From Nitrospira sp. UBA5698 (lineage in GTDB: Bacteria > Nitrospirota > Nitrospiria > Nitrospirales > Nitrospiraceae): 64,000 nt of DNA. Made by a program: the position numbers and the translations under genes. A model generated the notes under the pieces. The model was not told the origin of the DNA. It saw only the letters and a program-made list of their open reading frames with translations, and did not search any database. Each line of letters opens with the position of its first letter. Within the stretch, counting starts at the first letter, position 1. Of this stretch, positions 1 to 34,792 are shown in pieces. Location: NCBI GenBank assembly GCA_002420115.1, contig DIHK01000007.1:60136-124135 (forward strand), written 5' to 3'.

Positions 1-1189
1 CTTCGCACATTTGGTAGTCGGCAGTAGGATACAAATTGGTGAAATGCGTGTTACGACAACTTTTGCGCCCATCTTCCGCATCGACAAATCCATATTCGTC
101 GTCTAAACCGAAGGCATGTCCGACTTCGTGCCAATAGCTGCCGTCAGTGGTCATGGTGGAGAAATTGTTCACCTGAAACACATTGGATTTGTACATCTGA
201 TTGAAGTGCGCACGGAGAAACTTTGTGGCGAAATTCACACTCAGATGATCGTCGACCTCAAATAGGGTGCGAGTCGAAGACGGAATAGTTCCATCATTGT
301 GTCCTTTGAGGTACAGCTTCAACTGGAACACACCTGGGATACTCCAGTACGCTTCCGATGTCCGAACGAAGTTGTCGAGAATCCAATCCTGCGGCTTCAC
401 CTTGACCGCTTGCGATCCATCAGGATCCCATCTCCAATAGAGCTCCTTGTTTTTGTCCACTCGACAGCCCGCATAGGAGTCGCCGTCTTTGTCATAGCGA
501 TACTCAATCTTGCCTAGGCTGATTGCTTTGTTTTCGGGATCTCGTTGGTGAAGCGCTTTATCAGCGTACGTGCCTTGTTCACCGGGGAAATAGGTCGTCG
601 TCGAGCACAGCGTTGAACTTATCGATTTTGCGGAAGCTTTGAGCGTGAAGATCTGGGAATTGGTATTGGTGGATGGCATCTCGATCTGTGACGCGTCATA
701 CAGCTGCCCGGCGTGTGAAAAAGCAAAATCAACCCGGTTTGGGACCAGCTCATTAAACTGTGGTCGATACGGGATGGTCATGGTCCAAACCCCGTTGATC
801 TTGCTCAAGGCGTAGACATATTTGAAGCTCAAGAGTGAGCCGATAGGTAGGCCGACGAAGTCGTAGTGCCCTCGCACAATCTTCGTTTCCAGATTCCTCG
901 CTTTTAAGAGCGCTTTCTCCGGAGTGTCTCGTTCACTCCCAAGCGCTTGGGCTATTTCACGGCCCTTGGTGTCACGCTGGCGGTTGCACTGCAGAATGAT
1001 TCCATCCCACCGCAAGCTCCCTTGCAATGCCGTATCAGGGAAGAGCTCTGGGTAGTAGGCGCTTTCCGCTACGAGTTCAGGCGTCACCGGTCTGACCGTC
1101 CCAAGCGCGTCGTTGCAGAGATCCGCATAGACGGGAGGCTCCATGAGGAACAGTCCCAGCAACACGAGGATCATGATCAACAGTTTCAT
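1..1189 (-). CDS. Secreted zinc metallopeptidase, 3' end runs off the window (absent from ORF track)
   Basis: Hand translation: ATG at 1189 after a GAGGAGG RBS, signal peptide MKLLIMILVLLGLFLMEPPVYA, frame open to base 1, motif HEVGHAFGLDDEY near 140-100. Confidence 0.85.
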   Translation of the reverse strand, partial: MKLLIMILVLLGLFLMEPPVYADLCNDALGTVRPVTPELVAESAYYPELFPDTALQGSLRWDGIILQCNRQRDTKGREIAQALGSERDTPEKALLKARNLETKIVRGHYDFVGLPIGSLLSFKYVYALSKINGVWTMTIPYRPQFNELVPNRVDFAFSHAGQLYDASQIEMPSTNTNSQIFTLKASAKSISSTLCSTTTYFPGEQGTYADKALHQRDPENKAISLGKIEYRYDKDGDSYAGCRVDKNKELYWRWDPDGSQAVKVKPQDWILDNFVRTSEAYWSIPGVFQLKLYLKGHNDGTIPSSTRTLFEVDDHLSVNFATKFLRAHFNQMYKSNVFQVNNFSTMTTDGSYWHEVGHAFGLDDEYGFVDAEDGRKSCRNTHFTNLYPTADYQMCE

Positions 1190-1261
1190 TGCAATACCTC
1201 CTCGGCAGCACCAGCAGCATAGGGCTGGCCGACACCGCAGCTCTGCGTTGCGTTGTCTCAT

Positions 1262-1966
1262 TTATTTGCACTCATATTTCGGGAAACCCGAACATTCACC
1301 CGATTTGCATTTGTGGTCATTACCGAGCGATCCAGCCTTTCCGCAGGTTTCGCCTTTGTCCAACTTGGCCCGACACTTGTTATCTTTAAAATCGAGCCCG
1401 CCGTCGCAATATTCGCCGGCACCACAATCGGAGTCTTTCTTGCAAACGCAGGTCCCCTTGGTGCCGTCTACCGCGCTGCATTTGCCACCCTTGCAAGCGT
1501 CATCGTTGTAGCAGGTTCCGTCCATTTCTACCGAATTGGGTGTGTAACATTTTGACCATTTGCAGTAGCCACTTTTGCATTGATGTCCCCCTCCGACTGC
1601 ATCGCAGGTGAGGTTATCGGCCTTCTTAGGCATGCACTTGTTCTGATTGAGGTCAATGCCTGCATCACAGTACTTATCGTCGCTACAATCTGCATCCGTC
1701 TTACAGACACAGACCCCTTTGAGTCCTTCGATGTCGCTGCACTTGCCTTCCGCACAGGCATCATTGACATAACAGGTCTGGCCGAACCCCACGGAGTGTG
1801 GCGTGTAGCAGCGGCCGAGCTTGCAGTATCCACTTTTGCACTGGTGCCCGCCGCCGGCAACGTCGCACGTCGCGTTGTCCTCCTTGAGCGGCATGCAACG
1901 ATTCGCGGACAGGTCCACACCGGCGTTGCAATAGTTGCCCTCGGGACAATCCGGGTCCTTTCGGCA
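1262..1966 (-). repeat. Cys-rich coding repeat, modules A-B-A-B-A (A=8 Cys, B=4 Cys)
   Basis: Two ~87-aa near-tandem copies (CxxDxDC..YC.AG.DL..N.C..GGGHQCKSGYC..CYTP.SV..TCY..DAC..GKC) plus a terminal A module. Confidence 0.9.
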
Positions 1967-2887
1967 CTCAGGCAAACCACCGGCGATGTAGTTTTCGCCA
2001 TCCTTGATGGTGAAGACCTTCCCCGTGAGGTCGGAGAAGCGAGGATTGCGCTGTTCCTCAAAGTCATAGTCCTCTAAGTCACCGCTTTTATCGTCGACTT
2101 TGGGGTTGGAATCATCAACCTCAATCTTCACGATCTCAAAGTGCAAATGTCCTGGCGAGGCGCATCCAACATTGCCTTCATCACCCAGATAGTCCCCTTG
2201 GGTCACGTGGTCACCAACCTTGAGCTTGGCCTTGGTGGTCGTGGTACCGAACTGCATGTGTGAATACTTCGACCATTCATTATTCGCATGTTCGATCCAC
2301 ACATAGTTATTAAAACAGTCTGGTGTGTTGCGAAGGATCCTCCAGATATGCTGATTTTTCGATCGGCTGTCCTCGATATGCCGGATGGTTCCGTCTGCTG
2401 CTGCCATGATGCGATGGGGACCGCCGCCCTTACCATGCATGTCGAAACGACCTATCGGGTTGTGAGTGCTGAAATCACGAGTGACTTTCACATTGGTGCC
2501 GTCGGCATAAGGGATGCGATAGATATTCTGAGATTCCTGTCCTTTTGGTGGCGGTCCTGGATTCACGCAGGCATTTACCGCCTCATCGTAGGCGCGAGAG
2601 CACGCTTCGAGCTCATCACCTGTCTTGTTCATGCAAGGCTTGATGAGAATCTGTGCCTCCGCCTCGCAGCGATCAAGTATGTCGATTTGATGAGGCGTGA
2701 CCTTCTTTCCCGCACCAGCCTTGGACATGGCCTTGCTCCGCTCGACCTTCGAGAGAGATTTAGAGGGTTCCCCACTCTCTGCTGCTCTGCCGGCGTAGAC
2801 CGAAGAAGCCGTATCGAGGGACCACATTGCAGTCATACAGAGTAGGACTAAGAGGCGCCCAACCCAGCTTGTTCGTATCGCGATCAT
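1262..2887 (-). CDS. Secreted M23-family (LAS) peptidase with 32-Cys C-terminal repeat region
   Basis: Signal peptide; H-x6-D (HNPIGRFD), YSH and HLHFE motifs; AGGAGG RBS before ATG 2887 (ORF track starts at 2929). Confidence 0.8.
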   Translation of the reverse strand: MIAIRTSWVGRLLVLLCMTAMWSLDTASSVYAGRAAESGEPSKSLSKVERSKAMSKAGAGKKVTPHQIDILDRCEAEAQILIKPCMNKTGDELEACSRAYDEAVNACVNPGPPPKGQESQNIYRIPYADGTNVKVTRDFSTHNPIGRFDMHGKGGGPHRIMAAADGTIRHIEDSRSKNQHIWRILRNTPDCFNNYVWIEHANNEWSKYSHMQFGTTTTKAKLKVGDHVTQGDYLGDEGNVGCASPGHLHFEIVKIEVDDSNPKVDDKSGDLEDYDFEEQRNPRFSDLTGKVFTIKDGENYIAGGLPECRKDPDCPEGNYCNAGVDLSANRCMPLKEDNATCDVAGGGHQCKSGYCKLGRCYTPHSVGFGQTCYVNDACAEGKCSDIEGLKGVCVCKTDADCSDDKYCDAGIDLNQNKCMPKKADNLTCDAVGGGHQCKSGYCKWSKCYTPNSVEMDGTCYNDDACKGGKCSAVDGTKGTCVCKKDSDCGAGEYCDGGLDFKDNKCRAKLDKGETCGKAGSLGNDHKCKSGECSGFPKYECK

Positions 2888-2935
2888 GACAATCCCTCCT
2901 ATCGGAAATATGCTTGACACAGACCCCACATCGAG

Positions 2936-3541
2936 TTACTTGCACACAAAGTTCGGCAACCCCGAGCATTCTCCTGACTTGCATTTATGGTCGTTGCCGA
3001 ATGTGCCGACTGCACCACATTTCTCTCCTTTGTCGAGCTTCGGCCGGCACGCATTGACTTTGGCGTCCAATCCCTCGTCGCACCACTTGCCAGCGCCGCA
3101 ATCGGAGTCTTTGCTGCAGACACACGTCCCTTTAGTCACTCCGCCGACGGGTGCATTACACTTGCCTTCTCGGCATTCGTCGTCAAAGCGGCAGGATTCG
3201 CCCATCGAGGCCGAAGCCAGCGCTGAACAGAATCCCGCCTTGCATCGACCGGCCTGACATTGCTCGTCCTTAGTACAGACGGAACCGTCGCTCAACTTGT
3301 CTTTGCAGGTGCGCTTTCCTGAAATAGGATCTCCACAATAGTTGCCCGTGCCGCAATCTGAGTCGGCCCGACACTCATCTGCGTCCGCACAAACGCCCCA
3401 ACTGCATCGATCAGATGCGCATTGCCGCTTGGTGGTACAGAGAGTTCCACGGTCTGACTTGGGTTTGCAGATATTTCGAGCAAGATTCAGTATCCCAGCG
3501 GTACAGAACTCTCCATCCTCACAGTCAGCATCGGCTTCACA
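2936..3541 (-). repeat. Cys-rich coding repeat, modules A-A-B-A
   Basis: 28 Cys; last ~65 aa closely match the M23 protein C-terminus (GTCVC.KDSDCGAG..CD.GLD.K.N.CR.KLDKGE.CG..G..GNDHKCKSGECSG.P...CK). Confidence 0.9.
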
Positions 3542-4420
3542 CTGTCCTTCGCCACGCAAACCCGCCATCGCCTGATAATCGGTCTTGCCGTCACTCGTCT
3601 GGTAGCGTTCGCGCTGCTTGGCAGCGCGGTTCAATTGACAGGCGTTTAGGACTTCTTTGCCAATTTCTGACGTGCAATAGTCCATGACATTGGAGATTCC
3701 TTTGCACTCACGGAGATCACCGGCACTATCGGGCTTAACCTGACCCTGGCAGGAATTACACTTGATGTGATTACCGAATTCTTTGTTGCAGTTCGACACA
3801 CTGAGGGGATTCAGATTCACATAGGGCTCGAAGGTGTGTTTGAGTGAGAAAAAGTGCCCAAGTTCATGTGCGAGTAGGTATTGCTGGTTCAAGACTTTCG
3901 GCTCCGTGTCCGCCACAACGCAGGTAGCTATAATGATGCCCCGCTTTCTGTTGAACGGATTGACCCAGTGAGGAAAGGTCGCTCGACCGCACAAGCCCTT
4001 GTTCTTGTCCTCATTCTTTACAACCGTGTCGACGACAAGCACTGTGAGATGTCCGTCTGTTTTTGTGCGAGCCTGATTGTCGAAGTTGTCGTCCATAAAC
4101 TTTTCAAGGTCGGACGCATTGTCGAACCCAAGGTAACTAAAATTCTTCCCGTTGGAATCCGTCTGAACCTTGATTGCGCTGTGGTTCTCCTGCATAAACG
4201 TCGGGTGGATGACCAAAGCCGGGTTATTGCTATAGAGCGATTCGGCCCTTTCGATGTTGACCTGCAGCCACTTTACGATTTCGGCGTAAGTGTACCGCTG
4301 CGTGTTGATATGAAAGTGAATGTTGGCATCGAAGTTGCCCGCACAAACCGATGAAAGTGGGCAGAGCCAGACAAGCGCTGCGATCGCACAGATGCTGACC
4401 ACGTGCTTCAGTCTTTTCAT
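2936..4420 (-). CDS. Secreted metzincin (M43/pappalysin-like) metalloprotease with 28-Cys C-terminal region
   Basis: Signal peptide; HELGHFFSLKHTF zinc motif; NVMDY Met-turn. Confidence 0.8.
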   Translation of the reverse strand: MKRLKHVVSICAIAALVWLCPLSSVCAGNFDANIHFHINTQRYTYAEIVKWLQVNIERAESLYSNNPALVIHPTFMQENHSAIKVQTDSNGKNFSYLGFDNASDLEKFMDDNFDNQARTKTDGHLTVLVVDTVVKNEDKNKGLCGRATFPHWVNPFNRKRGIIIATCVVADTEPKVLNQQYLLAHELGHFFSLKHTFEPYVNLNPLSVSNCNKEFGNHIKCNSCQGQVKPDSAGDLRECKGISNVMDYCTSEIGKEVLNACQLNRAAKQRERYQTSDGKTDYQAMAGLRGEGQCEADADCEDGEFCTAGILNLARNICKPKSDRGTLCTTKRQCASDRCSWGVCADADECRADSDCGTGNYCGDPISGKRTCKDKLSDGSVCTKDEQCQAGRCKAGFCSALASASMGESCRFDDECREGKCNAPVGGVTKGTCVCSKDSDCGAGKWCDEGLDAKVNACRPKLDKGEKCGAVGTFGNDHKCKSGECSGLPNFVCK

Positions 4421-4452
4421 GACGGGACCCTCCTAAGTATAAGTAGACAAGC

Positions 4453-5295
4453 CTACCGTGCCAGTGCCTGGGGTTCTGGCAGCATTTTCCTAATAATACG
4501 ATCGAAGTCTCGCTTGGGATGATTACCGACTAGCGACACTCCGTTGATCACGAACGCGGGTGTGCCGTCGAAGCCGAACCGTTCTGCTTCCGCTCGATCA
4601 GCTGCAATGCGTTGCGTTACTGCGTCGCTCTGTAGATCGCGTTCGAGCCGTGCATGATCGATGTTCAGTGTCGCGGCAATTTCCTGCACGGCTTCGACGC
4701 CGCGGGACAAGTTCCGCTGCTGCTGAAATACAAGGTCATGAAATCGCCAAGCCTCATCTTCGTTCTGCAGTGCGATCGCCTCAAAATATCGCGCGGCTGG
4801 TTCGGCCGTGGCGTGGAAGCTCAATGGGTTATGTTTGTAGACGAGACGGACCTTGTCTCCGTACGCTACCAACACTTCCTGCAGCGTCGGGGATACGGCT
4901 CTGCAATAGGGGCACTCGAAATCGCTGTACTCAACGACCGTGATCGGCGCGTTGCGCGCTCCGCGAATAGGGCGATCTTCCGCAACGGTCGCAACTTTTG
5001 GATTTGCCATCTCGTTCTGCCAGCGAGCTTCCTCAATCTTGACTTTGCGAATCTCGGTTCCGCGCTCCACGAGGTCCGCAATCATCACCGGATCTTGTTC
5101 CAACGCGCGAAGGATGAGATCTGGATGTTGTCGTAACGTCTCTTCAACCAGGGCTTTGATGTCGGTGGACGATGACTGCAGGTCAGAGGTCTGAGCCCAC
5201 GCTTGTTCGGTACTGCTGATGAGAATTCCGAGTGAGACTGCCAGACTGAAAGATAAGAATGGACATGTTCTCCGGATAGAGGTCATCATAAGCAT
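4453..5295 (-). CDS. DsbA-family thioredoxin-fold disulfide oxidoreductase, exported
   Basis: EYSDFECPYC active site, GTPAF cis-Pro motif, N-terminal signal; true start may be ATG 5289. Confidence 0.9.
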   Translation of the reverse strand: MLMMTSIRRTCPFLSFSLAVSLGILISSTEQAWAQTSDLQSSSTDIKALVEETLRQHPDLILRALEQDPVMIADLVERGTEIRKVKIEEARWQNEMANPKVATVAEDRPIRGARNAPITVVEYSDFECPYCRAVSPTLQEVLVAYGDKVRLVYKHNPLSFHATAEPAARYFEAIALQNEDEAWRFHDLVFQQQRNLSRGVEAVQEIAATLNIDHARLERDLQSDAVTQRIAADRAEAERFGFDGTPAFVINGVSLVGNHPKRDFDRIIRKMLPEPQALAR

Positions 5296-5487
5296 CTCCT
5301 CGGTAGTTGATGGTCATTGGGAAAAATGTTTTGTATGCGGCTCTTAAGAACGGTCAATCCAGAAATCGTCTCGCCGTAGTCCCTTTCAGCAAAACGTATT
5401 CCTCAAAGCCACGCCATCAAAACGGTCAGATCCGTTTAATCTGCAACATTCAACCACGGTGGTGCCTGCTCAGTAGGATACAGTGGT

Positions 5488-5503
5488 GTATCTGTTCAGA
5501 TAC
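5488..5503. promoter_or_regulatory. Perfect inverted repeat GTATCTG-TT-CAGATAC, candidate operator upstream of dsbA
   Basis: 7-bp perfect arms in the LuxR-dsbA intergenic region. Confidence 0.3.
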
Positions 5504-5833
5504 GGGCAGGGCGTTTAGAAAGATGCTTCTGATAGGCCAGACTGCATCATGATCAGAGTTGGGCCGATGAATCTGGCTTTGATGGTATGGAGAGCACGTC
5601 TCACGCTTATTGTTTCTGTCGCTCTCTTTGGATAGCTGGTCCGCCCATGATTCATCCATGACTAGATCTTTCATTGCATATAGGAATCAGCCCTTCCTTA
5701 GACGTAACAGGAGGGGCACACGGAATCTGATTCGCTACTGTCATATTGGCGAGAATAGGAGGAGGCGTGAGGAGACGCTATAGTTAATTTTACACGTGCA
5801 GCCCACGACCGGATCCAAGGTGCTGGTCTGGTC

Positions 5834-7084
5834 TTACGCTTCGCGCTGCAACCGCACGGGCAGCTCGCTACGCGAATGCACACCGACTTTCCGAAAGATT
5901 GACTGTATCTGGTTGGCCACGGTGTGTTCGCTACAGTTGCGGCTGTGTGCAATGTGACGGTTCGTGGAGCCCATTAACAACGCTGCAAGTACTTCTCGTT
6001 CGGCGTCTGTAAGGTGTGCAACCTGACCGGCAGGAAGGAGCGGATAGGTGCCGATCAGCAATGTGTTCTCATGCACTCCATATTCAGCCAGCGTGGCTCG
6101 TGGTCCGTTGGGTGAAAAAAATGCTGCGAGCTCTGTGAGCGATGATAAACCCAGTTTGCGAACTGCGCGCGTCGTGCAGTTCGTCACGGCGGAGGGCGAG
6201 ATCCCAAGCATATAACTGATCTCCTTGCAGCTATGCCCTTGGCCGATGAATTCGGAGATCTGTCGCTCACGCAGCGTGAGGCCGCGTGGATCTGGAAACC
6301 TGGGATCATTCTTGACTGCGAGGACGAAGCGGCGTCCATCGGAATCAAAGTGGTCGACGAGCGACCAGCGGCCCCGTATGAGCCCCTCCCAGGCTGCCAA
6401 GGCTCGGTCAGGATCATTGCGGCCTAGACGGGTTCGGAGTTGGTCGAGGCGGAAGACTGCCCCACGCAACGCGGCGCGTGCGGACGGACGTTCTGCGCCC
6501 TCACGGGCTTCATAGAGTTTTCCGGATCCATCGAAAATGGCCTCCACGGAAGGGGAGTCGAGATCCAACTTCTGTGCGAATTCACGCAACCGGAGTCCGG
6601 CACCCATATGGCTCGCCACGCATTGCCAGCGGTGTCGTTCTTGCGCGGTCGGTACGATTCGTTCTGAAAACAACCAGCACAGGATGAGCGCGCTGCCTTG
6701 GCCTGTCAGCCCCTTGACCGCAATCTTATCGTGAACCACACCATTGGTAATCTGCTGAACAACCGTCGCGAGATCTGGTTCACGTGTGTATAACGCTTCG
6801 CTGAGTGATGTCACGGCTGGCCCGCTGCGGAAAAAATGGCTGACCACCGGAGTTTGCACCTGCATACTGGCTGCAAGAATGTCGCGCGCGTGCGTCGGCC
6901 CCAGTGCGGCAGACCGTTCAAGCTCTAGGTTGCCTGGGGTATAGTGGTAGGTGCCGATGGTGGGCCAGAATCCTCGTTTCGACAGAGGAGCGGCGTGTTC
7001 CAGTAGACGATTCAGCCAGCTACCGTCGTCATCTTCGAGCCTATATACCTCTTCGATGAGCCCTACCCAATCCTTGGTGTTCAT
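5834..7084 (-). CDS. LuxR-family regulator with two C-terminal HTH domains
   Basis: LTLRERQISEFIGQGHSCKEISYMLGIS and LTDAEREVLAALLMGSTNRHIA..SEHTVANQIQSIFRK. Confidence 0.85.
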   Translation of the reverse strand: MNTKDWVGLIEEVYRLEDDDGSWLNRLLEHAAPLSKRGFWPTIGTYHYTPGNLELERSAALGPTHARDILAASMQVQTPVVSHFFRSGPAVTSLSEALYTREPDLATVVQQITNGVVHDKIAVKGLTGQGSALILCWLFSERIVPTAQERHRWQCVASHMGAGLRLREFAQKLDLDSPSVEAIFDGSGKLYEAREGAERPSARAALRGAVFRLDQLRTRLGRNDPDRALAAWEGLIRGRWSLVDHFDSDGRRFVLAVKNDPRFPDPRGLTLRERQISEFIGQGHSCKEISYMLGISPSAVTNCTTRAVRKLGLSSLTELAAFFSPNGPRATLAEYGVHENTLLIGTYPLLPAGQVAHLTDAEREVLAALLMGSTNRHIAHSRNCSEHTVANQIQSIFRKVGVHSRSELPVRLQREA

Positions 7085-7410: not shown

Positions 7411-9117
7411 CTAGTTTGAGGTTTTTTCAGTGGGTGCCAGAATAGGCTGAAACATCGGATCTGCATTGAGCACGGCCTTCAGCAACTCGCGGTGGAGGAA
7501 GTAGCGCCATACCTCGTCGTCTTTTCCGGGAATCTCATCAAACCAGCGTTTGGCCTCGGTGAGGTGATGTAACATCTGACCTTTATCCCCGTAGTTCGGC
7601 ATGAAGATCATGCTGTAGGCCATGGTGTATTCAGCGAGAAACTTATCGAGTGGCCGTTCAGCGAGCTCCAGCGACGCCTTGGCATTGTCATAGGCTCTGA
7701 TACTGTCCTGGTCATGCAAGATGCGATTCCACGCCACCTTGTTGATACGAGACCAGGCTAGTTGTAGGAGAGCTTCAGCCTTAAGGCCTTTTCGATCGGC
7801 TGGAATCTCGTTGACCAACGCGTCAAAGGTTTCACTCATCGGAACCTGGTCATTGTTCCAGCGATAGGCCATTCCAAGCCGGAACCGATTCTCCAACTGC
7901 TCAGGATGGGTTCGTGCGAGGGTCTGCAGCGCCGGCAGGAGTCGGTACAACAGATCTGCAGAAGTCGGTTGTGCAAACCCACCAACCTCCATCCCCAACG
8001 AGAGATCGAGGCGATCCGAGGCGGCGGCGATCGTCCAATAAAACTCGTTGACTATCTGGGCGAGTACGGGATCCTTGATGACGAGCTTGTGGTTTCGGGC
8101 CGCGTCCTGTAGCAGCACGGTATAGAGATGCTTGGTTAAGACGGTGAGTGCCTCGGTCTGTTGTGGATCAATGAGGAGAATACGATTAAGGAGCGCCACG
8201 CGGTCGCGGAGCTCAGGAAAGGAGGCAGCCCGAGCGGCAGCCGCAGTGAGTGTGCCGGGTTGGTCGGCGGGACTCCACCAGACGATGGAGTCTGGAAGGG
8301 CACGACTTCTTTCAGTTGTGAATGGGATGCGTTCCTGGACCATTCCTGGAGCCTCAGGCTTGGTGTCTACCGGGAGATGCGCAACGGCGGTGTCGCGCGG
8401 AAACCCGTGTGGACGGAGTCCACTGAGCACGACCCATTGTGTGGTTATGGATTTGATGGCACGGCGTTCACGCTTGACCGTGCTGGTCCAGTGAACCATG
8501 CCCGGCCCGTAGGCAATCGGGGATGTGAGCGGGTCATGGTAGTGAACGGTCAGCTCGACCAATGTTGCAGGCACGCCAATGACGCTTCCATTCGGTTTCA
8601 ACCGAAAGGATCCGTTTGGGATGGTGCGGGTTCCGGTGACGGCTAAATGAAGACCAGTCCCTGGAGGGGAGGTGCCGAGCACATCCATCACGAAGGCTGA
8701 GGCCTGTGCACTAGGTAGCATATCTCCATAAAATACAAGAGGACCTGTGCTGGGCCAGAGGACATCCATCCCAATATCCGACCGATTCAGGAATGGGGCA
8801 TGTCCCACAGTGAGCGCCTCCCAGCACTTGTCGTAAGAAGGTTCCTTTGCAACGGAAGATTTTGCTTTTGCAGAGGGAGCCGTCACTGAGTTGTACTGGC
8901 AGGCAAAGTCGAATTCCCCGGCCGTGATTCTGTCGCCATGGGCAAGGGCCGTCGCATAGCGAAGGGCGGTGTCGATGGCAGAGGGATGAACGGTTTTGTG
9001 CTTCGTCTGGCTCAGCGGCGCTTTCGGCGTGGCGCTCGCCATGTCCGGCAGATTCAGCTCAACGATGGTCAAGAATCCAACAAGGAGGAGCAATCCACGA
9101 AAATGTGTCATGGTCAT
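7411..9117 (-). CDS. Exported hypothetical protein with TPR-like helical C-terminal half
   Basis: Long ORF, signal peptide, helical repeat-like pattern. Confidence 0.6.
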   Translation of the reverse strand: MTMTHFRGLLLLVGFLTIVELNLPDMASATPKAPLSQTKHKTVHPSAIDTALRYATALAHGDRITAGEFDFACQYNSVTAPSAKAKSSVAKEPSYDKCWEALTVGHAPFLNRSDIGMDVLWPSTGPLVFYGDMLPSAQASAFVMDVLGTSPPGTGLHLAVTGTRTIPNGSFRLKPNGSVIGVPATLVELTVHYHDPLTSPIAYGPGMVHWTSTVKRERRAIKSITTQWVVLSGLRPHGFPRDTAVAHLPVDTKPEAPGMVQERIPFTTERSRALPDSIVWWSPADQPGTLTAAAARAASFPELRDRVALLNRILLIDPQQTEALTVLTKHLYTVLLQDAARNHKLVIKDPVLAQIVNEFYWTIAAASDRLDLSLGMEVGGFAQPTSADLLYRLLPALQTLARTHPEQLENRFRLGMAYRWNNDQVPMSETFDALVNEIPADRKGLKAEALLQLAWSRINKVAWNRILHDQDSIRAYDNAKASLELAERPLDKFLAEYTMAYSMIFMPNYGDKGQMLHHLTEAKRWFDEIPGKDDEVWRYFLHRELLKAVLNADPMFQPILAPTEKTSN

Positions 9118-9144
9118 TATGAGTATTGGTCACGCGATTGGAGG

Positions 9145-9450
9145 TTAGCGAGTGCCGGTGGTTTCCAAGATCTTTTTCCGCATTACCGCTCGGCTCGCCG
9201 CGGACAATGTTGGTGAGGGGCTATGGCGACAGAGCGACACGGTTTGACGCAGTGATGTCACGAAGGTTTCACAATTCGGGCAGGCGCCCAGGTGTCGACG
9301 AATTTCATCGCAAATATCTCCGGAGAGTTCGTCATCGATATAGGCGGACAGCTGGCGCAGGATACGTAGACAGTGGGCTTTCCCATGAGCCTGTTTCCGT
9401 TGGATCGGTGCCGAAGATCGTTGTCGTTTAGAGGTGTTCCCTCGTGCCAT
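9145..9450 (-). CDS. Zinc-binding anti-sigma factor (zf-HC2), soluble
   Basis: LSAYIDDEL..HLGACPNC motif directly downstream of the ECF sigma gene. Confidence 0.85.
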   Translation of the reverse strand: MARGNTSKRQRSSAPIQRKQAHGKAHCLRILRQLSAYIDDELSGDICDEIRRHLGACPNCETFVTSLRQTVSLCRHSPSPTLSAASRAVMRKKILETTGTR

Positions 9451-10096
9451 GTGAAGCATTCCTCCGCGTTCTTGCTGGGATATGGGTATGGTCGGTGAGT
9501 GGCTCGCCGAGCCCCCGGGCGCTCAATTGACGGCGCACGAACAATCGAGCCCGGTGTAATCGTGATTTTACCGCTCGCTCATTTAACCCCATGATGGTCC
9601 CAACCTCCTTGGCGCTGACTCCCTCCATATCGCGGAGCACCAAGACCATCTTGTACTTCTTCGGTAGTTGATTGATCGCCGTATCGAGCGCCTCCCGCAA
9701 CTGCTTATTGTGGAGTGCGGCTTCGGGGCTCAGGCCATCGATCGGAATCTGTAACCGAAATTCACCGTCTGATGTGGGGATGAATTCCTCGAGTGATAAC
9801 TCTCGCTCAGGCGCGCCCTTCCGTTTTCGCCGCATGCGTAGGCAGGCCCGCGAGGCGATCGTGTACAACCATGTTGAAATCTGGGCATCGCCACGGAACC
9901 GGTCGAGGCCTCGATAGGCATTCAGAAAGGTCTCCTGGACCAAATCCTTCGCAGCCTCCGTTTCCCCACACAAGCGGTGGGCGAAACGATACATGAGATC
10001 CACATGATCTCTGTACATCGTATCAAAATCCTTCGCCGATCGGGTCTGAGTCGAGGGTTTCTCAGGCCGGCGGTCTGTGGCGGGTGATGCATTCAT
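9428..10096 (-). CDS. ECF (sigma-70 group 4) RNA polymerase sigma factor
   Basis: AKDLVQETFLNAY, ISTWLYTIA, region 4 AVKSRLHRAR. Confidence 0.9.
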   Translation of the reverse strand: MNASPATDRRPEKPSTQTRSAKDFDTMYRDHVDLMYRFAHRLCGETEAAKDLVQETFLNAYRGLDRFRGDAQISTWLYTIASRACLRMRRKRKGAPERELSLEEFIPTSDGEFRLQIPIDGLSPEAALHNKQLREALDTAINQLPKKYKMVLVLRDMEGVSAKEVGTIMGLNERAVKSRLHRARLFVRRQLSARGLGEPLTDHTHIPARTRRNASHGTREHL

Positions 10097-10169
10097 ACGC
10101 CGCGCAGTCTACGGGGTGGCAGAAAAGAGAGTCAAGATGAAGAACGGAGAGGCAGAGGACGCGGCTGGG

Positions 10170-11381
10170 CTACTTCACCCGATGCAGTTCGATGAGCTCG
10201 CCTTGTCCATTGAGCTCCACTGTGATGGGAGTTCCTTCCCGTGCTCCGTTCAGCAAGGATTTGCCGGCTCCGATGGGGTAGGTCTGTTCCCCTTCCGGAG
10301 TCCAGAGCCGGACGGCAGCATGATCCGGAGCGGCGAAGTCCAATGGTCCTGTGACGAAACGGCGAAGAAGAGCCGAATCGTTGGAGGCGGCAAGATCCGC
10401 GACGACGGAGTCGTTATGCATATGCAAGGTCATGGTCTGCCCGATCTTGGCACTCTTGATGCCGATCTTGTTATTGACGTTCACGATGCCGATAGGCGTC
10501 TTCAAGAAGATAAAATTCGACTTCATTTTGGAGATCGTGCCCGTGAGCAACAGATGGGCCTTACTACCCGGGGGAGCGATCTGGCCGATTTGCAGATCGA
10601 ACTGGAGGTCATGCACGCCGATAATGTTTCCCGCGCCATCTACTTCCACCGTCACAAACTCCCCGTTCTTGGGAGCGGTGAGTGCAGATTCATAAGTTCC
10701 CATGTGGAAGGCCTTCATGCCGCTGGTGGGTGTCCATAGCAGCAACTTGGTGTTGTCGACGCTGTCTCGCTTGAACGGTCCGGTGAGATAGCGATGGACG
10801 AAGGTCCCATCAGTCCGCCGCACAATATCGATGACGATATAGTCGTCGTGGACCATGAAGGACACTTCTTGCGAGGCAGGGAGAGACTTCAGCGTGGTCT
10901 TTGAACTCAGCGACATGAGCCCGATCGGTGTTTTTAGAAATACGATCCCTGGCTTGGCTCGCCAGACTCGGCCCGTCAACTCGATGGATGGGTTGACGTC
11001 AACACGAACGGGCACCGGTTCCACAATCGCAGGGTGAGCGGTCGGTGGGTTGTCCATGGGTGGTTGAACTGCCGGAGCTGTATCCGTGGTCTGAGCCGGC
11101 GGTATTTCAACCTCTTGTGGCTGAACGGTTGGTGGTAGATCGTTCTGTGGTTGTGCTGGGACGACGTCATCCGCCTCTGGCGGTTTGGGTGAAGTCCCGT
11201 CGTTCTGGGCCTGGAGAATTGTCTGGGTATCGAGTTGAGTTTCGAAAGGAAGCGGGTCGGAGGATTGCTTCTGCAGCTTGTCACCGTCCGCGTGGCTGAC
11301 TGTGGCACAGCCGGCGTTGACGACTCCCATGAGAAACACTGCAACCAATAATTGTCGAGCCTGTCCAAATTGATTCATCAT
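10170..11381 (-). CDS. Lipoprotein with Pro-rich linker and internally duplicated beta domain
   Basis: Lipobox NAGC; two copies of LTG...FLKTPIG...R.LTGP/RFVTGP...LWTP...TVE..G.G. Confidence 0.7.
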   Translation of the reverse strand: MMNQFGQARQLLVAVFLMGVVNAGCATVSHADGDKLQKQSSDPLPFETQLDTQTILQAQNDGTSPKPPEADDVVPAQPQNDLPPTVQPQEVEIPPAQTTDTAPAVQPPMDNPPTAHPAIVEPVPVRVDVNPSIELTGRVWRAKPGIVFLKTPIGLMSLSSKTTLKSLPASQEVSFMVHDDYIVIDIVRRTDGTFVHRYLTGPFKRDSVDNTKLLLWTPTSGMKAFHMGTYESALTAPKNGEFVTVEVDGAGNIIGVHDLQFDLQIGQIAPPGSKAHLLLTGTISKMKSNFIFLKTPIGIVNVNNKIGIKSAKIGQTMTLHMHNDSVVADLAASNDSALLRRFVTGPLDFAAPDHAAVRLWTPEGEQTYPIGAGKSLLNGAREGTPITVELNGQGELIELHRVK

Positions 11382-20099: not shown

Positions 20100-20177
20100 G
20101 GTGGGTGTAGCTCAGTTGGTTAGAGCGCCGGATTGTGGATCCGGAGGTCGCGGGTTCGAAACCCGTCATCCACCCCA
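20100..20177 (+). tRNA. tRNA-His (GUG) with G-1 and encoded CCA
   Basis: Acceptor GTGGGTG/CATCCAC, anticodon arm CCGGA-TTGTGGA-TCCGG, T-loop GTTCGAA, C discriminator. Confidence 0.97.
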
Positions 20178-28997: not shown

Positions 28998-29192
28998 TTA
29001 CCCACCAGCCGGCCAGATCACGCCTACAGGGAAGCCGATCGCGTGGGCGATCAGCTCCTTCGCTTCATCGGACGGACAAAGGTAATAATCCTCGATTTGG
29101 ATGATAGTTTCCGGAGGTACGCCTGCTCGGGCAGCTACCTCTTCGACTGAGAATCCGATGCGCTTCCGCAAGGTTTTCAGGTTTGGCGACAT
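28998..29192 (-). CDS. XRE-family HTH protein
   Basis: LKTLRKRIGFSVEEVAARAGV..TIIQIE. Confidence 0.85.
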   Translation of the reverse strand: MSPNLKTLRKRIGFSVEEVAARAGVPPETIIQIEDYYLCPSDEAKELIAHAIGFPVGVIWPAGG

Positions 29193-29211
29193 CCATCCCT
29201 CCCTATCTGCA

Positions 29212-29433
29212 TCACGCCGCTGTTGGTGAACTGGGTTGGTCGCCGGATGGCCAGATCGCCACCACATCAACACCGAGAGCCTTCGCAATCTTCAGTTTCG
29301 TCTCCACACGTGGAGTATGGCCGTGCCGTTCGATCGCGACGATGGTCCCGGGCCCGACTCCTGCCCGTACGGCGACTGCTTGGATAGCCAGCTGACGCGC
29401 CACTCGCAAGGACCTAAGTTTTGAAGCCACCAT
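29212..29433 (-). CDS. XRE-family HTH protein (paralog of neighbour)
   Basis: LRSLRVARQLAIQAVAVRAGV..TIVAIE..KIAKALGV. Confidence 0.88.
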   Translation of the reverse strand: MVASKLRSLRVARQLAIQAVAVRAGVGPGTIVAIERHGHTPRVETKLKIAKALGVDVVAIWPSGDQPSSPTAA

Positions 29434-29661
29434 GATTATCACCTCATGTTTTTATTGTGTTTACTCCAGCTATTAAACAAAGTCATTGAGGCTGAATTAA
29501 AATAAATGCAGCCTACATAGTGAGGCTGTCGACTGAACAGAGTCTGGCGACTTTGTTCGATGCACAGCGCCAAGGCGGACGTTGGCGCTGCGTAATGGGC
29601 TGTAATGGAGCTGAGAGGGGTGAGCTAAGCTACAAAGAAGTGGAAGCCGACTTGACGATGC

Positions 29662-30243
29662 TCAGGTCTGGAGTCGTTTGAGTATCTCAGCCCGTGTGAG
29701 GTACCGACTTTTGGAAGAATGTTGCTGTGGTCTTTTACGCTTCCACAACTCTCCCTTGAGTTCATCAATCAGCCGGTCGAGCTCTAGGTCTTGCTTGGCC
29801 TTGACTCGAGCGCTATGGCGCTCAACCGACTCTGGTTTGCCAAGCCACCACTTTAAGAAAAACGGCTTCGCGACCGGCCCATACATCTTCTTGAGCCAGG
29901 TTTCGTCAGCCGCTGTAAGATTCACAACACTGGTAATATAAAATAGCTTCCAAATCTTGAAATACACCTTAGCTCTCGACAAGGAAATTTTATATTCCTT
30001 ACTGATATGTCGTGCGACAGCATGCTTTGTTGGAAGGGGTTCGTTTTGCCTTAGCATGTTCAGCACGTATTGAGTTATTGCCTTGAAGATCTGAAGGTCA
30101 GCAACTTTTGCCCGTACCCCTGGGCGCACCTCTGGATGCACATACTCAAAAGCGGCTCTTGCCGCGTCGAGGAACTTCCCTTGAGCGTCGAAAGATTTCG
30201 CTGCTTGCTTCAAGAGCTTAATGGGCTCAATGTGCCGCGGCAT
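29662..30243 (-). CDS. Basic hypothetical protein, visibly AT-richer
   Basis: 193-aa ORF with GGAG RBS. Confidence 0.7.
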   Translation of the reverse strand: MPRHIEPIKLLKQAAKSFDAQGKFLDAARAAFEYVHPEVRPGVRAKVADLQIFKAITQYVLNMLRQNEPLPTKHAVARHISKEYKISLSRAKVYFKIWKLFYITSVVNLTAADETWLKKMYGPVAKPFFLKWWLGKPESVERHSARVKAKQDLELDRLIDELKGELWKRKRPQQHSSKSRYLTRAEILKRLQT

Positions 30244-30393
30244 TTCAACTCCGATTCTTTTAAGTTTGGTGTGAGCGATAGCGCAGTACTACTCTATGTG
30301 GCCAATAGTCTCCTCGCAATCGCTTCCATTTTATGCGTCGAAAAGATCAACCGCTAGACCGCTGACAGCGAGCGGCCTAGCGCCTTCAGGCTC

Positions 30394-30579
30394 TCACCTC
30401 TTGCCTGTCCTAGAAAGCTTGATCGCCTCGGCCGCAGTAATTCGGCCCGCCACCACTTCTTTCATGATCCTCGACACTAAAGCAGCCTTGTGATGATTCG
30501 GCATCCCCTCAGCGGCGTCCAACCAATCTCTCTTCCGGTCGATTTGGCTTGTAAGTATGATCCGCGTTTGCGATTTCAT
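30394..30579 (-). CDS. Small hypothetical protein
   Basis: Overlaps the upstream stop; AAGGAA RBS. Confidence 0.5.
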   Translation of the reverse strand: MKSQTRIILTSQIDRKRDWLDAAEGMPNHHKAALVSRIMKEVVAGRITAAEAIKLSRTGKR

Positions 30580-30821
30580 AGCGTTCCTTTTTTGTTGGAC
30601 ACAAGCAACTGCCGGCAGAGCATCAGAACGGCCTGCGTGTGCAAGACGTACAAGCCCATATGAATGCCGTGACTCTTATACGTTGGCGGCTTCTCGTCCT
30701 CCATCCGCTCAATGACCTTCTGCACTGTCACAAGGCCCAACTCCAGCGCGCGGAGTGCTTCCTCGAATCCTTTCACTTCATCTTCACTGATGATGGTCCG
30801 TACAGTCACGAGGTTGACCAT
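30576..30821 (-). CDS. Small hypothetical protein
   Basis: Co-oriented, RBS-like AGGAAAGG upstream. Confidence 0.6.
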   Translation of the reverse strand: MVNLVTVRTIISEDEVKGFEEALRALELGLVTVQKVIERMEDEKPPTYKSHGIHMGLYVLHTQAVLMLCRQLLVSNKKGTL

Positions 30822-30896
30822 GATGAGTTTCCTTTCTTGCTCTGATGGGCGCCTAGTTATCGCGAGCAGTCAGCCTACTACGAGCGTTCACTATCC

Positions 30897-31253
30897 CTAG
30901 GAGCACAGTTCATCTTCAACAACGGGGTAATGACCAGCCCGCATCCCAAAGCAGCGCCGACGGGCCTGATAACGGTCAAGGTCACCAGTGGCCTCAGAGA
31001 AACCATCACCTAATTGGTTTAGTAGATGGTCCAGGAACAAGAGACCCTTGTGCTTGGTGGGGAAGGGGCCGAATCGTCTAGGACGGAGCCCGGTCATCTC
31101 CACGCGCAAAAACCACACCGTCCGACCGAATTGATCTCTGCTTCGCTTGAACCATTCCTCTCGAGGTTTCACCTCCATGATCTCAATCTTTTCTCGCTTC
31201 TTGCGTGGCGCAACCGCCTTGGCTTTGCCCGTATCGGTCAATGATTGTCCCAT
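30897..31253 (-). CDS. Hypothetical protein
   Basis: AGGAGG RBS before ATG. Confidence 0.65.
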   Translation of the reverse strand: MGQSLTDTGKAKAVAPRKKREKIEIMEVKPREEWFKRSRDQFGRTVWFLRVEMTGLRPRRFGPFPTKHKGLLFLDHLLNQLGDGFSEATGDLDRYQARRRCFGMRAGHYPVVEDELCS

Positions 31254-31378
31254 CGTGCGTCCTCCTGTTCAGGTTCGTGTGTTGGTCGTTCAGATCGGCT
31301 GCATTTCAGTTCCTCAACCCAATAACTTGTCAGCCTCCTCATCCGACCGTTCAGGCTGAATTGCAGGTGTCTCATGGC

Positions 31379-31475
31379 CTATCCACGCTATCCACAAACA
31401 TCCACAGCCCAGATTCAAGATTCCTGATTTACGATCTACGATCCAAGATTCAAGATAAAGATCTAAGATTTAAGA
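31379..31475. repeat. Three DnaA-box-like ATCCAC units followed by a 7-bp-period GAT array; candidate second origin
   Basis: CTATCCACG 31379, CTATCCACA 31388, ACATCCACA 31398; GAT at 31412,19,26,33,40,47,54, then 60, 67. Confidence 0.65.
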
Positions 31476-31512
31476 GTTCCTACGCCGGTCTGAACGCTCG
31501 TCGAACGAGTGT

Positions 31513-32046
31513 TCAGATAACCATGCGAGCCACCTCCTGACGGTCGTTCGACACCGGTCGGAACTCCCGTTCCAACAAGTCTGGAAGCCCCTGTGCAAAT
31601 GGTGACAGTCCGCTCTTAAGACAATGCTTCCTGGCCAGCAGGAGAAATTCGTTCATCAGCTCCGGGTTATCCGGAAGATTGCGAACCCGCGCAAGCACTG
31701 CCTTCTGAACATTCTTGCTGTCGGGCTGCTGATACCGGAGCGCGTTTCGGATGAGGAGGAGGTTCGTTTTCTCATCGAATCGAATGAATCCCTCCTCCTC
31801 GAGTTTCAACAGCATGTCCTTGACCCGCCGGAGCGGCCAGGCCATATCCGCAGCGACGTATTCCGGCGGCAACACAAAAAAGCCTTCCAACGTGCGGTGC
31901 TTCGTCGTCAGAAGGTGCAACGCGAAGAGCCTCTGCGAGTCTGGCCAGGTGGCGACCTTCTCATCCGACCAAAAGTGACAAGCTATGCGGTAATACCTCG
32001 GCACATCGGGGCGCTTTGGTTTATTGGTTTGCTCGTCGTCCAACAT
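31513..32046 (-). CDS. Phage replication initiator / replisome-organiser N-terminal winged-HTH protein
   Basis: RYYRIACHFWSDEKV..LFALHLLT..H..LEGFFVLP..YVAADM..LEEEGFIRFDE..LLIRNALRYQ. Confidence 0.75.
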   Translation of the reverse strand: MLDDEQTNKPKRPDVPRYYRIACHFWSDEKVATWPDSQRLFALHLLTTKHRTLEGFFVLPPEYVAADMAWPLRRVKDMLLKLEEEGFIRFDEKTNLLLIRNALRYQQPDSKNVQKAVLARVRNLPDNPELMNEFLLLARKHCLKSGLSPFAQGLPDLLEREFRPVSNDRQEVARMVI

Positions 32047-32066
32047 CGAGACCTCTCCTCATACAC

Positions 32067-32477
32067 TTAGTGAGCCGTCGATCGACTCATGGCACGGCCA
32101 GTCCTTCGCGTACTAGGCATCTGTAACGGATCAATCGGATCGGAGTTGCTGAATAATTCATGAGTGAGCCGAACATAGGTGACGAGCTCGCTCACGTCGT
32201 CAAACTCACTTCTCAATTCGTCAACGATGAGTTGCACAATGCTGGCATCGATATGTGATCGGCTTTCTGCAGCCATGAACAACAGATCCAACCGCTTCTT
32301 ACAGTTCCCGAGAATGTACAGGGCGAGGTCACCATCTTCTGCAAACCATTTGAGGCCGAATGGTTTCTGATCAGTCACGTCCCTGATCTGTCCATCTTGA
32401 TCGCGATGGAGAACTCTTGCCTGTAACGCCAACCTCGGCTCGGTTTCCTCAGTTTCGGTCGTCGTCTTGGTTTTCAC
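32067..32477 (-). CDS. Hypothetical protein
   Basis: AGGAGG RBS, GTG start. Confidence 0.6.
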   Translation of the reverse strand: MKTKTTTETEETEPRLALQARVLHRDQDGQIRDVTDQKPFGLKWFAEDGDLALYILGNCKKRLDLLFMAAESRSHIDASIVQLIVDELRSEFDDVSELVTYVRLTHELFSNSDPIDPLQMPSTRRTGRAMSRSTAH

Positions 32478-32532
32478 AGGACCTCCTGGTTTAGAAGTTC
32501 AGAGCAAACGGTGCACCGGAGATACGTCACGT

Positions 32533-32679
32533 TCACGATCGCAGTTCCTTTCGTTGCTTAAATTCCTTCTCCAGCAGATTACGGATGAACCCACTGGCCG
32601 AAATCCCCTCCTTTCGCAAGGCATCCAATTTGACCTTCATTCCCCTCGGCACGCTGATCAGTATCTTCACCATCGCCAT
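32533..32679 (-). CDS. Ribbon-helix-helix (Arc/CopG-like) regulator, 48 aa (absent from ORF track)
   Basis: MAMVKILISVPRGMKVKLDALRKEGISASGFIRNLLEKEF; GGAGG RBS. Confidence 0.8.
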   Translation of the reverse strand: MAMVKILISVPRGMKVKLDALRKEGISASGFIRNLLEKEFKQRKELRS

Positions 32680-32702
32680 AGCCTCACCTCCAATGACTAT
32701 AA

Positions 32703-32769
32703 ATATAGATTTCTATATATTCATATGTCAAGGCATATGATTGACTATATCGAGCGTGGCCAGTACAGT
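32703..32769. promoter_or_regulatory. Divergent sigma70 promoters with two palindromic operators
   Basis: Rightward TTGACT(32741)-N17-TACAGT; leftward TTGACA(32731)-N18-TATATT; inverted repeats ATATAGA-TT-TCTATAT and TCATATG-N6-CATATGA. Confidence 0.75.
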
Positions 32770-32780
32770 ACCGAGACGCA

Positions 32781-32960
32781 ATGGCGACGAAGGGCAGTAA
32801 CTCAACGGAAAAGCGAAGGAAAGTGTTTGGCTTGAGCCTCGATCGACAGCTCATGCTCGATATCCAGCACTTAGCACTCGACCAAGACCGCTACGTGAAT
32901 GAGATGATTGAAGAAGCTGCGAAGGACCTGCTGAAGAAGTACCGAGAGAAGGCGAAATAG
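32781..32960 (+). CDS. Ribbon-helix-helix regulator, 59 aa, probable element repressor (absent from ORF track)
   Basis: RRKVFGLSLDRQLMLDIQHLALDQDRYVNEMIEEAAKDLLKKY: beta-helix-helix pattern. Confidence 0.8.
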   Translation: MATKGSNSTEKRRKVFGLSLDRQLMLDIQHLALDQDRYVNEMIEEAAKDLLKKYREKAK

Positions 32961-33062
32961 ATACCTTCAGCTTATGAGCTGACAAGAATCAGGCGGCACG
33001 TGCCGAGTGCCTTCATTGCGATCCATCCCCAAGACCCAGCAGGAAGAATTACGAGGCACACG

Positions 33063-33521
33063 ATGAAAAGCTCGATCACCTTTGGACGGCTGGGCACCCA
33101 CAGCCTACTGGCTTTCTTCCTTATCGCCTTTACTCTGGGCTGTACACGCCTCACACCGCAAGAACGGGAACACTACGCTTCTCGTGTCTATGATATCCCT
33201 CATGACCGCGTGTTCGAAGCAGTCAAAGAGCGGGTGCGGCAATACCCGATGGGTCTACAAGAGACTGATCTACAGCAAGGCCTTGTGAAAAGTCGGATTG
33301 GTGGGACCACGCCGGGCATCGGAGCGACCGTCGGCTATCAAATCACCGTCATGACCACGGCGGAAGGCCAGCGGACGAGGGTGGTTCCAACCTGGCAGAT
33401 GAATATTTCATCAGAACCAACCAAAACCCACTTGCTTCCTGTCACGATCGACGATCGGCCGTTGCTCTATTTGGAGTTCTTCGACGCACTCGATGAACAG
33501 CTCGAGAAAGCACGTCAGTGA
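33063..33521 (+). CDS. Lipoprotein of unknown function
   Basis: Signal II FTLGC; start refined to ATG 33063. Confidence 0.75.
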   Translation: MKSSITFGRLGTHSLLAFFLIAFTLGCTRLTPQEREHYASRVYDIPHDRVFEAVKERVRQYPMGLQETDLQQGLVKSRIGGTTPGIGATVGYQITVMTTAEGQRTRVVPTWQMNISSEPTKTHLLPVTIDDRPLLYLEFFDALDEQLEKARQ

Positions 33522-33534
33522 GGAAAAGGCACCA

Positions 33535-33966: not shown

Positions 33967-34290
33967 AAACAACTCAAGCACTAAAATTCGAGCTCTTCGC
34001 AAGTCTGCCTATTATGCAGGCATCAGTGTGCTGATTGCGCCGAGGTTGTGGGGTTGCGACTGTCCTGCCAGGATTTTCACTTCTCTGCATGGCCGAACTC
34101 TTGATATTGCCGGATTTTCCAGGTTTCCGCCTCGTCAGATTGTGACTTCGAATCACGGTCATGACCGGTCGTGGTCTTGCTTGCCCATTTTTTGAGGTAA
34201 CCCCAATGGGGAATTCGCTGAGCCTCCTGCACCGCTAGGCTTCACTCAGACAGCCACTGATCACCAGAAACCTGTGAAGGAGTCGCAACC

Positions 34291-34695: not shown

Positions 34696-34792
34696 GCCCC
34701 CCTCTTTCGATGTACCTCGTTCAGTTCTGGTGGGAATCGGACGTCCTGATACGGTTATCTCAGACACGATCACGACACAGGAGGACACCACA

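Follow-up and report, generated by a model that had tools for sequence, protein, structure and literature searches.

Why should a gene for a DsbA-like thiol-disulfide oxidoreductase stand directly ahead of a set of exported, cysteine-rich hydrolases? The question is raised by the first 5295 nucleotides (nt) of a 64-kb stretch of Nitrospira sp. UBA5698 (64,000 nt of contig DIHK01000007.1; hereafter the window). Here a minus-strand run of four open reading frames (ORFs) encodes a DsbA-like foldase, an M43/metzincin-like peptidase, an M23 peptidase and a third peptidase with an HExxH motif. Gaps along the run are 32, 48 and 72 bp, and a strong Shine-Dalgarno sequence precedes each gene. An earlier sequence-only reading had described this run, its gaps and the 28- and 32-Cys tails of its enzymes, and these details match the ORF calls exactly. 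It had also given all four proteins signal peptides; read by eye, each N-terminus has a plausible Sec leader with a basic n-region, a hydrophobic core and an AxA-type site (predicted sites AWA/Q, VCA/G, VYA/G and VYA/D), from which we infer Sec export of all four across the inner membrane. Our best explanation, to which we give a probability of about 0.68, is that the locus is an accessory operon of the Nitrospirales comprising a LuxR-family gene with a palindromic box, a stem-bearing foldase and one to three Sec-exported hydrolases with Dickkopf_N-type tails. The foldase would be dedicated to these tailed enzymes.

We read the surroundings of foldase homologues across a range of divergence, covering about 15 distinct loci (numbered with an L below). 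The genome-contig scan gave, among the matches listed, three Nitrospirota loci and 77 homologues from other phyla, which served as an outgroup, and the metagenome scan gave nine loci. In every Nitrospirales locus with readable downstream sequence, the next gene after that of the foldase encodes an exported protein rich in Cys. The pairing was seen in the window, L001, L002, L005/6, L007, L009, L010-12, L013-15, L016-18, L022 and L023, and further in L102, L104, L105-107, L109, L110 and L112. It was kept in at least six flanking contexts and with at least six kinds of client: M43-like, M23 and beta-lactamase-fold enzymes, a new HExxH family, small HExxH enzymes, and a protein with no enzyme motif. 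Foldase orthologues at 72-98% identity carry the source name Nitrospira sp.

The full arrangement of LuxR gene, foldase and tailed M43-like, M23 and third peptidases occurs in the window, L010/11, L016-18, L022, L023, L105-107, L109 and L110, and the published assembly of Candidatus Nitrospira nitrosa (L016, CZQA01000001) has the same four-gene arrangement. L001 and L013 have it without the third gene. Elsewhere both flanks and clients change. In L002 (CP060499.1; foldase 72% identical, unrelated flanks) only the third peptidase follows, with its 32-Cys tail, and in L102 (76%, other flanks) a beta-lactamase-fold enzyme (PF00144, E = 2.5e-40) bearing the same 32-Cys tail is followed by the third peptidase. 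In L005/L007, from marine Nitrospirales (about 53%), the clients are HExxH proteins of 322-326 amino acids (aa) with related tails of 26-28 Cys; in L104 (51%) the client is a 237-aa exported protein with 24 Cys and no enzyme motif; and in L009 (51%, other flanks; labelled Granulosicoccus) tailed M43 and M23 enzymes follow. At least 15 further foldase/client pairs, including foldases at 53-62% identity, lie on contigs of equal size in the match lists, which is consistent with linkage. A Cys-rich ORF adjoined none of the 77 outgroup homologues (34-45% identity; Bdellovibrionota, Elusimicrobiota and Gemmatimonadota among them), three of which had only a marginal one, 2.5-6 kb away. Co-occurrence of DsbA with Cys-rich clients, put forward in the sequence-only reading as a check, was therefore strongly positive within the Nitrospirales and negative in the outgroup. 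On this comparative evidence the foldase-client relationship appears well supported.

Three observations on these divergent loci stand apart from the pairing itself. L009 (JBGCFI010000004.1) is binned as a gammaproteobacterium; the label is unconfirmed and may reflect lateral transfer or a binning error, and we claim no cross-phylum transfer. In L102, a DDE transposase fragment (936-1289) precedes the relocated cassette by about 4 kb, which would fit mobility of the module. In L005 (10167-10616) and L007 (9946-10395), a 149-aa exported protein with GGxGxD repeats of the hemolysin-type calcium-binding kind follows the Cys-rich client.

Comparison of close relatives revealed exchange of parts within the locus. 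The interval nt 3566-4459, exactly the head of the M43-like gene, shows no DNA similarity to L022, and the two heads are 50% identical as proteins; in the DNA flanking it, L022 matches the window at 97% on one side and 93% on the other. Three assemblies (X24, X26 and X27) break at the same points as the L022 allele swap (3550 and 4460). These are DNA-assembly-like, with flat depth and long contigs, and we used them for allele breakpoints only, not for expression. The M43-head swap is thus bounded by breakpoints at nt 3550-3565 and 4460 in backgrounds otherwise 93-97% identical. L105 is 97% identical over 1263-5870, with a third gene only 61% identical in protein, and in L109 identities run from 76% for the foldase, 51% for the M43 head and 94% for the M43 tail to 95% for the M23 head and 58% for the third gene. 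Because such discordant identities occur within one locus, heads, tails and foldase must differ in history while gene order has been kept. Judged from these alignments, heads and tails recombine as separate modules.

The same observations bear on the possibility that the foldase is a general periplasmic disulfide catalyst, which adjoins its heaviest users by inherited synteny alone. The window has no other gene of the CxxC thioredoxin type (no second C[PG]xC gene of this kind was found there), and many of the loci come from closely related Nitrospira with a common synteny. Yet the pairing survives relocation: in L002, L102, L005/L007, L009 and L104 the flanks are unrelated and a client still lies directly next to the foldase. 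Client type varies while the pairing stays constant, and the discordant module identities show a locus that recombines with its order preserved. The lack of cultured type-species names among the best 120 DsbA matches also hints, weakly, at an accessory gene. We therefore consider a general catalyst rather unlikely.

The sequence-only reading had supposed that the genes are co-transcribed, and contigs from two metatranscriptome assemblies agree with this: in X30 the foldase/M43 junction is spanned (4181-4800) and in X35 the M43/M23 junction (2716-2957). No terminator-like sites were found between the operon genes. Several points weigh against a dedicated operon, among them that the RNA contigs come from low-depth assemblies with possible DNA carry-over and that the DsbA/M43 gap contains a weak promoter-like site. 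Close relatedness among many of the Nitrospira loci makes independent observations fewer than loci. Moreover, L019 and L020, two loci of undetermined lineage found through the tail, encode tailed enzymes (one beta-lactamase-fold, one M19) with no adjacent DsbA; the tail is therefore not strictly dependent on a private foldase.

What kind of enzyme is the foldase? The 280-aa protein (nt 4453-5295, minus strand, as are all genes of the run) probably starts two to three codons inside its ORF. It matches Pfam Thioredoxin_4 (PF13462, 82.6 bits, cut-off 23.2) and DSBA (PF01323, 73.5 bits, cut-off 25.6), with ScsC_N at 18.1 bits, under the cut-off of 25.8. A helical stem (aa 37-97, nt 5005-5187) precedes the active site CPYC (aa 128-131, nt 4903-4914) and the cis-Pro loop GTPAF (aa 244-248, nt 4552-4566). 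C128, C131, T245 and P246 are invariant in 26 homologues, in which the stem is also conserved. Sequence matches in the PDB include Proteus mirabilis ScsC (PmScsC, 4xvw) across aa 45-271. The AlphaFold2 (AF2) model has a pLDDT of 85.6 and places stem helices at aa 37-56, 59-67 and 69-97, where the pLDDT exceeds 90 from about aa 50 onward. Searched with Foldseek, the model matched 3gyk (TM 0.81 on target) and BdbD and DsbA structures, which points to a thioredoxin fold with an inserted helical domain. The longest alignments, stem included, were to BcfH (7jve), Caulobacter ScsC (CcScsC, 7rgv) and PmScsC (4xvw/5idr), at 240-283 columns; Wolbachia alpha-DsbA2 (6eez) aligned over 184-197 columns.

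BcfH, ScsC and alpha-DsbA2 are described as homotrimeric isomerases, BcfH as a bifunctional oxidase/isomerase (PMC8405906, PMC5524982, PMC8900818, PMC6450060), and work on ScsC variants has argued that oligomerisation prevents such enzymes from engaging DsbB (PMC11634996). Because the Nitrospira protein shares the stem and DsbA-domain architecture of these enzymes, and because its clients carry 14-16 predicted disulfides, whose reshuffling is the harder step, we consider it more likely to be an isomerase or bifunctional foldase than the plain oxidase of the sequence-only reading. Salmonella BcfH likewise has a DsbA-like domain after an N-terminal helical stem (Foldseek E = 1e-10, 250-280 columns), and its gene lies within the bcf fimbrial cluster beside presumed clients. 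The two proteins are only 18-20% identical, with CSWC in BcfH and CPYC in Nitrospira, and the clients of BcfH are fimbrial subunits with few disulfides, whereas the putative ones in Nitrospira are hydrolases with 14-16 predicted disulfides. BcfH is a described trimer with oxidase and isomerase activity that contributes to fimbrial biogenesis (PMC8405906). ScsC (4xvw, 7rgv) and alpha-DsbA2 (6eez) also have the stem, the DsbA domain and the Thr-cisPro loop. Scs proteins are encoded with ScsB/ScsD partners; in contrast, the conserved neighbour of the Nitrospira foldase is a Cys-rich hydrolase. Because no ScsB/ScsD/DsbD-type or copper-gene Pfam family was found among the neighbours in any locus gene table, we do not file the foldase as an Scs system. 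Scs proteins act in copper tolerance (PMC5524982, PMC8900818).

The tails that these foldases accompany are built from repeated cysteine units. Dickkopf_N (PF04706, cut-off 25) matched the M43-like tail at 54.1 bits and the M23 tail at 28.3 bits, and it matched 33 of 53 tail-bearing relatives, with a best E value of 2e-24. In the M23, third-peptidase and beta-lactamase-fold enzymes the common layout is an 8-Cys unit plus a 4-Cys unit, given twice, and then a terminal 8-Cys unit, whereas the M43-like tail has the order 8+8+4+8. The 8-Cys unit has the spacing C5C5C10C9C8C4C4C, and the terminal one ends in ...GNDHKCKSGECSGxPxxxCK at the extreme C-terminus. In an AF2 model of a third-peptidase relative, the tail forms well-predicted small beta units; 14-16 disulfides per tail are predicted. 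Terminal units of the three paralogues agree at 73-79% identity, which bears out the sequence-only proposal that the enzymes share a domain; the targeting role proposed there for this domain is a guess. A search of 1.84 billion cluster representatives found only 135 tail matches at E<=1e-3, most of those listed having the tail at the C-terminal end or close to it. The tail is fused to, among others, M19 dipeptidase, class-3 lipase, M23, beta-lactamase-fold, reprolysin-like, trypsin-like, endonuclease/phosphatase-fold and LamG domains. By this measure the tail is a rare, promiscuous C-terminal module of exported hydrolases. Some homologues bear the NCBI name 'Dickkopf N-terminal cysteine-rich domain-containing protein', and our literature search found no paper on a bacterial Dickkopf module. 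Dickkopf proteins of animals antagonise Wnt and have no enzyme domain; the bacterial 8- and 4-Cys units, in contrast, form C-terminal arrays on hydrolases.

Cysteine-dense tails next to a ScsC-like protein could also be taken for metal handling, with the foldase acting in copper or redox stress and the tails binding metal in the manner of metallothionein instead of being disulfide-knotted. The ScsC-like architecture, the CPYC motif and the subthreshold ScsC_N match would suit this idea, CcScsC binds Cu(I) very tightly (PMC8900818), and a Cys-rich DUF326 protein is encoded elsewhere in the window. The gene tables speak against it, holding no scsB/scsD/DsbD-type neighbour at any locus. The tails, moreover, match a disulfide-bonded fold and have an even number of Cys in every unit, and they are always fused to hydrolase heads, for which a metal sponge would have no need. 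We regard metal handling as very improbable.

Three enzymes carry these tails in the window. The exported metzincin/M43-like peptidase (494 aa, nt 2936-4420) has the motif HELGHFFSLKH (nt 3836-3868), in which Ser replaces the Gly of HExxHxxGxxH, and a Met-turn candidate, NVMDY (nt 3677-3691). Pfam matches to its head are marginal: Peptidase_M43 scored 22.4 bits, just under the cut-off of 23, and Reprolysin_3 23.3 bits (cut-off 22.4). A PDB sequence search gave no match to the protein. The tail of 28 Cys in Dickkopf_N-type units covers aa 294-493 (nt 2939-3556). We considered a lipoprotein reading of the leader (LSSVC) and rejected it, as orthologues have Trp at this position (LSSVWAG).

The exported M23 peptidase (541 aa, nt 1262-2887) starts at the ATG at 2887, 7 nt behind AGGAGG, with the mechanical ORF extending to a GTG at 2929. 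It matches Peptidase_M23 at 44.7 bits (cut-off 28.7), its nearest solved relative is the endopeptidase ShyA, and alignment to ShyA and to orthologues places its zinc and catalytic motifs at nt 2441-2464, 2255-2266 and 2135-2149. H142, D149, H210, H247 and H249 are invariant across orthologues, as are the motifs HLHFE and YSHM. In place of HxxxD, the first zinc motif reads H142-x6-D149, and the Pfam alignment does not extend to it; enzyme activity is plausible, not assured. The 32-Cys tail occupies nt 1265-1987. Lysostaphin (with SH3b), LasA and pseudoalterin are likewise exported M23 heads with a separate C-terminal non-catalytic module, and pseudoalterin is type II-secreted and kills other bacteria (PMC6962226). 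The Nitrospira enzyme differs from this group in that its module is a predicted disulfide-knot array, not SH3b or LysM, and in the H-x6-D spacing of its first motif.

The third peptidase runs off the left edge of the window (5' part of 396 aa, nt 1-1189) and has a HEVGH motif, HEVGHAFGLDDEY, at nt 92-130. At the 93%-identical locus L022 the full-length gene encodes 655 aa with a 32-Cys tail, and full-length tailed orthologues are present in L002, L016, L022 and L102. Searches with this protein gave no Pfam match and no useful PDB sequence match. For a full-length relative at 92% identity, modelled with AF2 (pLDDT 83), Foldseek gave no PDB match at E<0.5, and a search of BFVD returned only low-TM repeat matches to EGF-like viral proteins. 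The 113 homologues found have few source-given names, which are Nitrospira, Vicinamibacterales, Tectomicrobia, Nitrosospira, Gallionella, Polyangiaceae, Bdellovibrionota and Bradymonadia. The protein appears to represent an undescribed HExxH family. As a separate observation, aa 200-255 (window about 425-592, minus strand) show a weak likeness to kringle 2 of tissue plasminogen activator (PDB, E = 0.017), and the Cys residues flanking this stretch, C195 and C242, are both invariant in the family alignment.

Are these enzymes weapons, or do they serve the cell that makes them? They may be Nitrospira's own periplasmic factors for cell-wall remodelling, similar to ShyA, EnvC or MepM, with a foldase that only aids their folding: M23 and beta-lactamase-fold enzymes are common autolysins, ShyA is the closest solved M23 structure, and no secretion-system gene is linked. 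Core housekeeping genes are, however, not normally so variable. Close relatives differ in whether they have the third gene (absent from L001 and L013, present in the window), head alleles of about 50% identity sit inside 93-97% identical backgrounds, and homologues are patchy, their few source-given labels including Polyangiaceae, Bdellovibrionota and Bradymonadia, groups known for bacteriolytic lifestyles. We judge a housekeeping role unlikely. The set of M23, beta-lactamase/DD-peptidase-fold, metzincin and new HExxH enzymes would instead point to attack on the walls and proteins of other cells, in antagonism or defence, which is the least secure part of our explanation. The roles put forward in the sequence-only reading, namely antagonism, matrix remodelling and defence against grazers, are likewise guesses. 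A bolder version, in which foldase and Dickkopf-like tail form a portable matched pair, with the tail tagging heads for a private route of oxidative folding and perhaps secretion, and the heads, swapped by recombination under diversifying selection, making up an arsenal against competitors or predators, seems to us doubtful.

For the accessory operon itself we propose the following course of events. Its genes would be transcribed together, as RNA contigs across two junctions weakly indicate, and the hydrolases would be exported unfolded via Sec, as their signal peptides suggest. The co-expressed foldase would then form and above all reshuffle the tail disulfides, probably as an oligomer like BcfH, ScsC and alpha-DsbA2, an action we propose because of its architecture and the strictly conserved gene pairing. 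Once folded, the tail may act as a common stabilising or binding module for all heads. With recombination exchanging heads and tails, the locus would act as a platform into which exo- or periplasmic hydrolases are plugged. The sequence-only term 'self-contained export kit' goes too far, since no DsbB/VKOR, DsbD or secretion-component genes are linked to the operon in the locus gene tables.

The logic of such an arrangement has precedents in DsbL/DsbI-AssT and in SrgA of the Salmonella virulence plasmid, where an extra DsbA-family gene likewise lies beside the protein that is oxidised. AssT requires DsbL, and DsbL and SrgA are substrate-adjacent, specialised DsbA paralogues (PMC6067686). These are monomeric oxidases, DsbL has the DsbB-like partner DsbI, and each client has one or a few disulfides; the Nitrospira operon, by contrast, has no linked membrane partner and up to three multi-disulfide clients with one common tail module. 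The principle that a specialised DsbA paralogue can be encoded next to its substrate is established, and the Nitrospira operon extends it without being a new kind of system. What is new is the lineage, a putative stem-type foldase for several clients that share one disulfide-dense module, the swapping of heads, and the apparently undescribed peptidase family.

Nitrospira play a key part in nitrite oxidation in soils, waters and treatment plants, and to our knowledge almost nothing is known of their exported enzymes and their interactions with neighbouring cells. Our literature search on Nitrospira with DsbA, M23, VKOR or DsbB found nothing relevant. A natural foldase-client pair with 14-16 predicted disulfides per client would be useful for studying and producing disulfide-dense bacterial proteins. 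The locus also brings to light a bacterial Dickkopf-type module that has gone unstudied and occurs fused to hydrolases of many kinds, as well as a metallopeptidase family without a Pfam model or a structural relative in the PDB. Head-swapping points to an arms-race function, and the bacterial modules may bear on the origin of the animal Dickkopf cysteine-rich domain.

How might the operon be controlled? Between the foldase and the next gene upstream lies a leader/promoter region (nt 5296-5833, minus strand) with conserved blocks in a five-locus alignment. It contains a palindrome, GTATCTGTTCAGATAC (GTATCT-N4-AGATAC; nt 5488-5503, unstranded), which overlaps a second, GATAC-N6-GTATC, and lies about 193 nt upstream of the foldase ATG. 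The palindrome is unique in the window, where 0.04 would be expected by chance, and exact copies lie about 190-225 nt upstream of the foldase in 15 Nitrospira loci. L013-15 have it with one mismatch, and so does L002, a locus with no LuxR gene alongside; the outgroup loci gave a single stray match. The palindrome is a candidate operator. The adjoining gene (nt 5834-7084, minus strand) encodes a LuxR-family protein of 416 aa with two GerE helix-turn-helix domains (two stretches matching Pfam GerE, 84.5 bits). L001, L010, L013 and L016 also have this gene next to the operon; it is syntenic in most Nitrospira loci, and a 54%-identical orthologue lies near the foldase in L005, of marine Nitrospirales. 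These features make it a candidate regulator of the operon. Contigs from three metatranscriptomes cover nt 5320-5620 of the leader, including the palindrome; the 538-bp leader RNA could be a long 5' untranslated region or a separate small transcript.

Beyond the LuxR gene, nt 7411-11381 (minus strand) hold an extracytoplasmic function (ECF) sigma factor (9428-10096), a 403-aa protein with no Pfam match (10170-11381) and a 568-aa exported protein, also with no Pfam match (7411-9117), with a small gene between the last and the sigma factor. In L001, L013 and L014 this set accompanies the operon in conserved synteny, and there the small gene encodes a zf-HC2 anti-sigma factor. We considered sigma factor, anti-sigma factor and 568-aa gene as parts of the operon and rejected them, as they are missing from the relocated loci. 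The window holds no other strongly Cys-rich ORFs beyond the operon genes. A tRNA-His gene lies at 20101-20177, and the stretch from about 29000 to 38000 has short ORFs only, two of which were sampled and had no Pfam match; it may represent an island or what is left of a mobile element. The DUF326 protein (Pfam E = 7e-10) is encoded at 35961-36461 on the plus strand; it has 166 aa, 16 Cys and a leader of the twin-arginine type (GRRSFLSTG), and it resembles the Cys-rich four-helix bundles of copper-storage proteins.

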